Shown piece by piece: positions 3,534 through 3,680 of a stretch of DNA of 64,000 bases (positions are counted from its first letter, which is position 1; every line of letters starts with the position of its first letter). Under the pieces are notes generated by a model. That model ran no database searches. It was not told where the DNA came from and worked only from the letters and a program-made list of their open reading frames with translations. This DNA comes from Staphylococcus phage RQ1. Made by a program: the position numbers and the translations under genes. The stretch lies in the sequence record PV344601.1, one strand, 5' to 3'.

Positions 3534-3680
3534 CTGTGAGAGCTCATATAAGCTCAAAGATTTCTTTCTAGGTATTATCTATCCTAGAATTGATTGAGTG
3601 GCTTATGAGGGCTCTTAAACAGTGTTGAGATGGATTCTGTGAGGGGTAAAGCATAAAAGGTAGATTTTATTGTGTAGAAT
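3534..3680 (+). ncRNA. structured element copy A (candidate ncRNA or cis-regulatory RNA)
   Basis: Long-range helix ctgtgagagc (3534-3543) with gctcttaaacag (3611-3622). Internal hairpin ctagg-N10-cctag (3568-3587). Conserved atggattctgtgagggg and ataaaa-N6-ttttat. Homologous to copy B at 43047-43185 with compensatory changes. Confidence 0.4.

Follow-up and report, generated by a model that had tools for sequence, protein, structure and literature searches.

The window analysed here (the whole 64,000-nt stretch of DNA from Staphylococcus phage RQ1, sequence record PV344601.1) stems from a Sextaecvirus-like Staphylococcus siphovirus, whose nearest records are VB-SauS-SA2 (MH356730, hereafter SA2) and PT1-4 (PP212901) at ~80–93% local identity. 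Plus-strand genes with early and replication functions occupy positions 1–39011 of the window, and minus-strand genes with tail, lysis and recombinase functions occupy positions 39343–64000. Each of these regions harbours one copy of a non-coding element of ~165 bases, with both copies in the same DNA orientation. Copy A (3518–3680) fills the 174-nt gap between a conserved 47-aa ORF (3374–3517) and a 168-aa gene (3692–4198), and is bordered at its 5′ end by the stop codon of the former (3515–3517) and at its 3′ end by the Shine-Dalgarno sequence (SD) GGAGG (3681–3685), after which the ATG of the latter follows at 3692. Copy B (43031–43192) is held by the 285-nt gap between two minus-strand genes, i.e. 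the endolysin gene (43291–44763; domain order CHAP-amidase-SH3b) and the gene for a 137–139-aa protein (42586–43005; phrog_3319), after which the genes for a BppU-type fibre and a 326-aa Xer-like tyrosine recombinase come next. On the late strand, copy B is preceded by the hairpins behind the endolysin gene and followed by the SD and start codon of the 137–139-aa gene. The initial annotation had reported two same-orientation copies in these very settings, and nhmmer profile hits confirmed both of them over slightly wider spans (those given here, with 26 distinct orthologous copies of A and 16 of B).

The genes around these copies differ among relatives. Although the 47-aa ORF, in the product of which a domain search found no domain, precedes copy A in every one of the 26 distinct orthologous copies, the gene downstream of A can be the 168-aa gene, its 54–61-aa C-terminal version, a 350-aa gene, or directly nrdE, or can have undergone deletion. 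Likewise, the gene upstream of copy B varies, with different lysins or an IsaA-like gene in this position. The element itself stays put at both loci while the flanking genes swap, and marks the borders where relatives exchange neighbouring genes.

With regard to the neighbouring proteins, the 168-aa protein (3692–4198, plus strand) consists of a weakly SH3b-like N-terminal part (phrog_33273) and a 60-aa C-terminal part, of which the C-terminal 54–61 aa alone are left in PT1-4 and several metagenomic phages. Its annotation as 'endolysin' in SA2 is doubtful, and a joint duplication of A and B together with an SH3b domain was rejected, as the protein shares no more than 20% identity with the endolysin C-terminus and the two are not in the same relative orientation. 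Homologues of the phrog_3319 protein (33–50% identity) occur in ~260 Herelleviridae (Kayvirus-like) phages of Staphylococcus and Mammaliicoccus, where no B-like leader was found upstream of the gene and the neighbours are uncharacterised genes. The recombinase gene (39343–40323, minus strand), with Phage_int_SAM_1 and Phage_integrase domains in a Xer-like architecture, ends the late strand and converges on the early genes, and the 332-nt non-coding gap beside it (39012–39342) is a more natural candidate for a recombinase site than either A or B.

Homology, distribution and conservation of the two copies

BLAST of copy A against the window aligned it with copy B in two blocks, namely block 1 (3523–3590 with 43036–43103; 73.5% over 68 nt, E 2e-6) and block 2 (3630–3679 with 43143–43191; 78% over 50 nt, E 7e-5), and yielded nothing comparable elsewhere. 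The ~40 nt between both blocks could not be aligned, and the consensus sequences of the two families agree in 100 of 158 columns (63%). A profile built from the A copies only matched three B copies (E 3e-9 to 3e-11), and a profile built from the B copies only matched A copies in turn (E 2e-8 to 6e-15). Both copies are found at the same two sites in SA2 and PT1-4, and the search for further copies in the three genomes (~242 kb) revealed no additional site below E 0.3 with either profile. These reciprocal matches, together with the presence of exactly two copies per genome, indicate that A and B are true paralogues. Moreover, the identity between A and B was 70.0% within the same genome and 70.0% between different genomes, suggesting that the duplication is old and occurred without gene conversion; gene conversion and co-evolution of A with B were rejected on the basis of this comparison.

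Homologues in related phages do exist (26 distinct A copies and 16 distinct B copies, obtained from metagenome, ENA and Logan contigs), and they belong to a narrow group. Within the phage collection, only SA2 and PT1-4 carried the element, pattern scans of IMG/VR gave no matches, and pattern scans of metagenomes and GTDB genomes gave 138 loci with just three true homologues, all on phage contigs and none in host genomes. The idea of an sso/palA-like element was discarded as well, with a BLAST against plasmids returning no match. In the Sextaecvirus SpP, the A and B profiles found nothing at the B-equivalent locus, which was the part of that genome searched. SpP (L200/L201) does have a dispersed repeat of its own of ~300 bp (36169–36460 versus 8338–8635, 85% identical and inverted), one copy of which lies directly after the SpP recombinase gene, with weaker copies near 13433, 17690 and 18700. 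No ORF is kept on either strand of A or B, as short ORFs of PT1-4 are missing from other copies, and the mini-ORF MDSVGC* was dismissed because it is without SD and is not kept in A. A literature search on Sextaecvirus regulation or transcriptomes found no reports. The element is an undescribed, unannotated, clade-restricted and non-coding one, the general kind of which (a phage intergenic regulatory cassette) is familiar.

Both copies are under purifying selection. Copy B is 81–98% identical between phages whose adjacent protein gene is 72–90% identical, and the columns shared by both families are the more constrained ones within each family: the fraction of variable columns is 26% where the A and B consensus agree versus 49% where they differ in family A (p 0.003), and 38% versus 68% in family B (p 0.0002). 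The GGATTCTGTG motif at 3632–3641 (reading CACAGAATCC on the minus strand) has two matches only in the window, within A and B, is part of the longest shared conserved run, and is near-invariant in the 42 copies; on the minus strand, this CACAGAATCC region contains a –10-like CAGAAT. Block 2 with GGATTCTGT has been kept nearly whole in L016, the copy that diverges most, whereas its hairpin body has drifted, and in one A lineage a 10-nt insertion is tolerated just downstream (on the minus strand) of the promoter-like hexamers described below. The flank of copy B outside the A/B homology (43192–43283) is 90–99% conserved in all B loci and at most of them better conserved than copy B itself, and includes a hairpin at 43192–43201/43216–43225 and another one at 43263–43283, just after the endolysin stop codon (43291).

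RNA folding and comparison with known families

A scan of the whole window with Rfam 15 at the gathering score returned no matches, and sensitive E-value scans of 3400–3800 and 42950–43350 returned chance-level hits only (E at least 1.6, at most 17.6 bits). As the whole-window scan missed a true group I intron, these local scans are the relevant ones, and neither copy matched a covariance model of any family. In addition, ARAGORN found no tRNA or tmRNA genes in the window, and the scan for intrinsic terminators called none in 3300–3800 or 42900–43400 on both strands; the AT hairpin of the element is without G-C pairs, and the U-tract of copy A (on the minus strand) is 5 nt away from the stem. 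The view of the initial annotation that the element is not a tRNA, a terminator or a group I core was thus borne out by these three types of scan. Two group I introns do reside elsewhere in the window, one at 63076–63340 (minus strand; 85 bits in a local scan, with a gathering score of 50; the one overlooked by the whole-window scan) and one at 25980–26283 (plus strand; 33.7 bits) between the two halves of a DNA polymerase gene (25194–26006 and 26340–28700), and these have GTTCAACGACTATCC, AGGAGTAGGGC and CCCTTTAAATCGAAA in common.

Some functional classes could be compared at the level of layout. HK022 put-type RNAs lie in sense orientation downstream of an operon promoter, which was not found for this element: A and B share their DNA orientation with operons running opposite ways, and there is no plus-strand promoter directly upstream of A. 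As regards the recombinase or nuclease site that the initial annotation offered as one option, the alignment revealed no Xer/dif or Cre/lox core (inverted arms of 11–13 bp around a 6–8 bp spacer), as the inverted symmetry in the element extends over 6 bp (ATAAAA/TTTTAT) and 5–6 bp (TAGG/CCTA, with a 10-bp spacer) at most. The TCCTAGAAT and TATTATGTAAA segments have what we take to be a resemblance to Bacillus dif arms, but are ~90 bp apart.

When folded as RNA, copy A forms a long irregular hairpin on the plus strand (3528–3627), with a minimum free energy of –45.9 kcal/mol versus –28.9 kcal/mol on the minus strand. This hairpin is built from an outer helix (GCUGUGAGAGCUC / GGGCUCUU..ACAGUG), a middle helix (AUAUAAGC / GCUUAUGA) and an apical stem of UCUAGG (3567–3572) and CCUAGA (3583–3588) around N10. 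The hairpin domain of copy B (43043–43152) has an apical stem of UUAGG (43081–43085) and CCUAA (43096–43100), again around N10, and an outer helix (GAAGCCAUGAGAGCC / GGCUCUCAAUGGAUUC) that is confined to one subfamily, referred to as B1. More specifically, the GAGAGC/GCTCTC helix is present in the copy B of the window and five other B1 copies, and the B2 copies (those of PT1-4, SA2 and seven others) have ATAAGC opposite GGTCTC, which remain unpaired. The long-range helix is missing in half of the B copies. A mostly continuous duplex of at least ~20 bp, as expected for an RNase III site, is likewise present in A on the plus strand and in B1, and absent in B2.

According to the initial annotation, A and B have this long-range helix in common, and the substitutions between both copies preserve its pairing. 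The two copies of the window can indeed form such a helix, but it is unpaired in B2 and its 3′ arms in A and B are 12 columns apart in the alignment, so that setting CTGT/ACAG against CCAT/ATGG compares non-homologous positions. Among the 42 aligned sequences, the two hairpins that are positionally homologous contain one covarying pair only (CG 18, UA 17, UG 5). In the terminal hairpin, five out of six pairs are invariant. As a general statement, preservation of pairing therefore does not hold. The terminal ATAAAA-N6-TTTTAT hairpin was correctly described as common to both copies, but it is nearly invariant and occurs as a motif throughout the genome, and RNAalifold on A and B together gave ~0 kcal/mol and no common consensus structure beyond this AT hairpin. 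What stands is a conserved, non-coding and hairpin-forming element in two copies, and what does not stand is a common plus-strand fold proven by compensatory changes. As a caution, the compensatory changes that were apparent between two paralogues failed once 40 homologues were added.

Within each family, the folding potential was considered for both strands. The RNAalifold consensus of family A reached –19.2 kcal/mol on the plus strand (z –4.4) versus –5.8 kcal/mol on the minus strand (z –1.9), and that of family B reached –17.6 kcal/mol (z –2.9) versus –13.2 kcal/mol (z –2.8), with z scores taken against column shuffles. Folding of the individual copies gave a mean of –42.9 kcal/mol (plus) versus –24.8 kcal/mol (minus) for A, with the plus strand favoured in 21 of 26 copies, and of –32.8 kcal/mol (plus) versus –31.8 kcal/mol (minus) for B, with the minus strand favoured in 10 of 16. 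In the plus-strand consensus structure of A, G.U was seen at 14 pairs and A.C at 3, a count that is biased because this structure was chosen on the plus strand. Local compensatory changes were seen in the B hairpins.

Promoter-like block 2 and the AT palindrome

The plus strand of the window contains 53 sigma-A-like promoter matches scoring at least 10/12, of which 23 score at least 11/12, and most of these are located in the early region. The minus strand contains 10 such matches, all at 10/12, leaving the late genes without a strong one. Since the SpP annotation includes a phage sigma factor, this scarcity of minus-strand sigma-A promoters suggests that the late genes use a different promoter class. 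The gap of copy A is the sole long early intergenic region without a strong sigma-A consensus promoter, and no convincing plus-strand sigma-A promoter was found inside A or upstream of B. In the flank of copy B, a near-consensus sigma-A promoter at 43223–43251 on the plus strand (TTGACA-17-TATATT, with TG) resembles the early promoters of the phage and points antisense into the endolysin and holin genes; from this predicted promoter, an early RNA antisense to the lysis cassette may be made. On the late strand, copy B follows two terminator-like hairpins that were read by eye from inverted repeats and neither of which was called by the scan, and with such hairpins ahead of B the fibre/recombinase module would need readthrough or an internal start.

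On the minus strand, block 2 itself looks like a promoter. In copy A this stretch (3650–3678) reads TCTACA-17-TATGCT and scores 8/12, which is below the 9/12 threshold of the promoter scan (it was read from the sequence), and in copy B the scan called TTTACA-17-TATCTT (43162–43190) at 9/12. The palindrome ATAAAA-N6-TTTTAT is located inside the spacer of both (3653–3670 in A, 43165–43182 in B), and the distance between the –35-like and –10-like hexamers is 17 in all 42 copies, without indels. A sigma-A promoter would have its hexamers 16–18 bp apart and, within the –10, A at position 2 and T at position 6. The last position of the –10-like hexamer is T in 25 of the 26 A copies, while positions 4–5 vary. 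In family B this final T is found in half of the copies (8/16), with TATCCC or TATCTC in the other 8.

The palindrome (as WTAAAA-N6-TTTTAT with at most one mismatch) occurs at 16 sites in the window versus 3.7 expected, a number reached by none of 100 shuffles, and 10 of the 16 sites are intergenic. Sites of this 18-bp palindrome are located at 3653, 31827, 32350, 32689, 33863, 34328, 35006, 40391, 43165 and 60651. Those at 31827, 32689, 33863 and 35006 on the plus strand directly precede AGGAGG and the start codon of early genes, the one at 32350 is directly upstream of a –35, and on the minus strand the palindrome is found ahead of the genes for the tape measure and the recombinase. Operator, 5′ stabiliser hairpin and promoter spacer are all conceivable roles for the palindrome, and its presence before the SDs of plus-strand early genes indicates that it may be an RNA hairpin or operator rather than a promoter spacer. 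Among the A copies, the 6-nt loop of the AT hairpin is found in inverted form, with GGTAGA in most copies and TCTACC or TCTGTC in others. In these variants the whole 18-mer is exactly reverse-complemented, as in a small hairpin-mediated inversion.

The extended motif T(T/C)TACA-(2-3)-ATAAAA-N6-TTTTA has three sites on the minus strand, with one in block 2 of each copy and one ahead of the tape-measure gene. The last of these follows a terminator that was called by the scan (60732..60697). Upstream of the tape-measure gene, the motif is present as TTTACA-(2-3)-ATAAAA-N6-TTTTA in the window and in SA2 and in looser versions in PT1-4 and SpP, and the hexamer overlapping the right arm of the palindrome reads TATACT or TATAAT in SA2, PT1-4 and SpP. 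The tape-measure gene also contains internal repeats (55808–56560, minus strand) with a period of ~132 nt and ~69% identity, which are found in SA2 and PT1-4 as well.

Possible functions of the element and its known counterparts

Our favoured reading, which we put forward tentatively and at clearly less than even confidence, is that the element is an old intragenomic duplicate of a promoter-plus-hairpin-leader cassette that is best read on the minus strand. Such a cassette would start with a weak sigma-A-type promoter (T[TC]TACA, 17 bp, TAT-NN-T) in which the AT palindrome serves as spacer, followed ~10 to 20 nt further on by the nearly invariant CACAGAATCC, ~100 nt of hairpin-rich RNA that include a conserved apical stem-loop, and a U-rich tract (CAUCAUUUUUU in A, UUCAUUAUUUU in B), after which the homology ends. 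Copy B would then restart or gate the last late module (phrog_3319 protein, BppU tail fibre and Xer-like recombinase), with its hairpin and U-tract acting as an attenuating leader. Copy A would place the same cassette antisense within the early operon and yield a short RNA of ~120 nt with full complementarity to the early mRNA at the orf47-gp168 junction, a junction that forms a very stable hairpin of its own. The likely effector would be RNase III, through cleavage of the hairpin or the duplex. The homology, copy number, purifying selection, motif anatomy and tape-measure upstream parallel that underlie this proposal were observed directly, and from these we infer the promoter activity, transcript ends and regulatory effect that the cassette would have.

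This tentative proposal would account for the common orientation of both copies, the borders of their homology, the fact that constraint is highest in block 2, and the similar arrangement ahead of the tape-measure gene. An autonomous unit explains why A and B share their DNA orientation though their neighbours are transcribed oppositely, which a cis-acting mRNA element does not, and the borders of the A/B homology coincide with the proposed promoter and the U/A tract. Furthermore, as the minus strand is without promoters of at least 11/12 and copy B comes after terminator-like hairpins, the module downstream of B needs an entry point. Also in favour are the unvarying distance of 17 next to a segment that tolerates an insertion, the retention of the last –10 base in A, the little-changed block 2 of L016, and the lower variability of the columns that both families share. 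On the other hand, copy A folds far better on the plus strand, its promoter score is 8/12, and half of the B copies have TATCCC or TATCTC for a –10. Neither region has a hit in the terminator scan, copy A has no minus-strand gene downstream of it, and the AT palindrome also precedes SDs on the plus strand.

The strand preference in folding might rather point to sense-strand intercistronic hairpins, read on the plus strand in the early mRNA for A and on the minus strand in the late mRNA for B, and serving as RNase III-type processing or stability sites. The long double-stranded hairpin in the 5′ leader would then uncouple the downstream cistron, and the common orientation of A and B would be an accident of direct duplication. 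We regard this as possible but rather doubtful. It agrees with A folding best on plus and B slightly better on minus (i.e. the local mRNA strands), with the size and stability of the A hairpin on the plus strand (~100 nt, –46 kcal/mol, family z –4.4, G.U bias), with A being the sole long early intergenic region without a sigma-A promoter, and with the location of both copies directly upstream of an SD. However, conservation peaks outside the stems, in GGATTCTGT, the apical loop and the A-tract, which would read differently in the two RNAs, the modules of A and B follow opposite orders with respect to the SD, covariation is almost nil, and the long helix is missing from the B2 subfamily. The same opposite sense strands are also the starting point for a trans-antisense pair, in which the early mRNA of A (plus) would be complementary to the late leader of B (minus) and would couple early and late expression by pairing through the conserved loops and GGAUUCUGU/ACAGAAUCC. 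Oppositely transcribed units with a common DNA orientation provide the geometry needed for such complementarity, and A and B both fold most stably on the strand that is sense at their own locus. Constraint is strongest in the columns that the two families have in common, loops and single-stranded motifs among them, and perfect complementary runs of 9–15 nt around GGATTCTGT were present in every genome examined. Nevertheless, A and B from the same genome are no more alike than those from different genomes (70.0% versus 70.0%), the apical loops of PT1-4 no longer match, and the required orientation has an even prior chance of arising anyway, making this pairing quite improbable in our view.

An equally improbable model is that of the initial annotation, in which both copies are plus-strand RNAs with a common fold, acting as a small RNA at B and as a cis-regulatory leader at A. 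On the plus strand, both copies of the window can form the closing long-range helix along with the apical and terminal hairpins, and one apical pair covaries between CG and UA with UG intermediates that would wobble on the plus strand only. Yet B is without upstream plus-strand promoter, the plus strand there runs antisense to coding regions, folding both families jointly gives a consensus of ~0 kcal/mol, and B is not better folded on plus, with half of its copies having lost the helix. The element might also act on DNA instead of RNA, as a cluster of double-stranded sites bound by a phage protein, such as a regulator with the AT palindrome and TAGG-N10-CCTA as its targets, or a protein that binds an origin or arrests forks, similar to the situation at SPP1 oriL/oriR. 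This would fit with sequence being kept more than pairing (loops included, and in the same orientation in both families), with the over-represented and mostly intergenic WTAAAA-N6-TTTTAT (16 sites versus 3.7 expected, 10/16 intergenic), with the A variant carrying a 10-nt insertion, i.e. one helical turn, between two conserved motifs, and with the SPP1 origin copies residing one in an early gene and the second in a late intergenic region (PMC6316719). Nonetheless, the direct-repeat arrays and distinct AT-rich unwinding block of an SPP1-type origin are not seen in the element, nor are iterons (A has a single 11-nt repeat, present twice, and no tandem repeats, and B is without such repeats), and the palindrome arms are just 5–6 bp. 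There is no change in cumulative GC skew at A or B, and the strand-asymmetric folding of A (with its G.U bias) and the local compensatory changes in the B hairpins point to single-stranded nucleic acid, so that we deem DNA sites unlikely.

On a broader level, there is a small chance that the element represents an undescribed phage regulatory RNA system, consisting either of paralogous minus-strand small RNAs or leaders with CACAGAAUCC as conserved 5′ seed, or of a mutually antisense early-mRNA segment and late leader that time the fibre/recombinase module via RNase III. Should the element function as a promoter-leader or small-RNA unit, a first regulatory element would be defined for the Sextaecvirus-like staphylococcal phages, which are being isolated for therapy and the gene regulation of which is unstudied. 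The element would then also explain how the post-lysis module, with a second tail fibre and the Xer-like recombinase, is expressed apart from the remaining late operon.

Among known systems, lambda PR′-6S RNA-tR′, lambda oop and P22 sar are short promoter-proximal units or phage cis-antisense RNAs. The favoured minus-strand cassette would resemble these in being a small autonomous unit with a promoter (putative here), a ~100-nt structured RNA and a U-rich end, and in its position, which is in front of late genes for B and in antisense within another operon for A. Similar to lambdoid late promoters, it would also have a –10-like hexamer (here CAGAAT) in the initially transcribed region. In contrast to these units, no Q-like antiterminator was identified here, the terminator is non-canonical, promoter, pause and termination are putative, and two diverged paralogues per genome are found here and not there. 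T4-type PeSL (promoter-early plus stem-loop) cassettes and the MITE-like Correia repeats of Neisseria are likewise short and conserved promoter and hairpin cassettes bordering variable gene modules. However, those occur as many dispersed copies, whereas the present element has exactly two copies in each of three genomes, each fixed at its orthologous site, lacks a strong early promoter as well as terminal inverted repeats with target-site duplication, and gives no indication of having moved recently.

With respect to RNA processing, the early mRNAs of T7 contain repeated RNase III processing hairpins (R sites). Repeated RNase III-type processing sites are also present in the early mRNAs of SP82 (PMC4838370), a phage of a Gram-positive host as is the one studied here. 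The T7 and SP82 hairpins are homologous, intercistronic, long irregular stems just upstream of an RBS, a description that copy A fits well. They differ in all being sense in one transcription direction, whereas A and B have opposite orientations with respect to the transcription of their loci, the long stem is lacking from half of the B copies, and the conserved single-stranded motifs are left unexplained. Finally, SPP1 oriL and oriR consist of direct repeats bound by gp38 and an AT-rich unwinding element (PMC6316719). Although no direct repeats were found in A or B and no origin-binding protein is known here, the two systems are alike in that a Firmicute siphovirus carries a pair of related non-coding sequences, of which the early/replication region contains one and a late intergenic gap the other.
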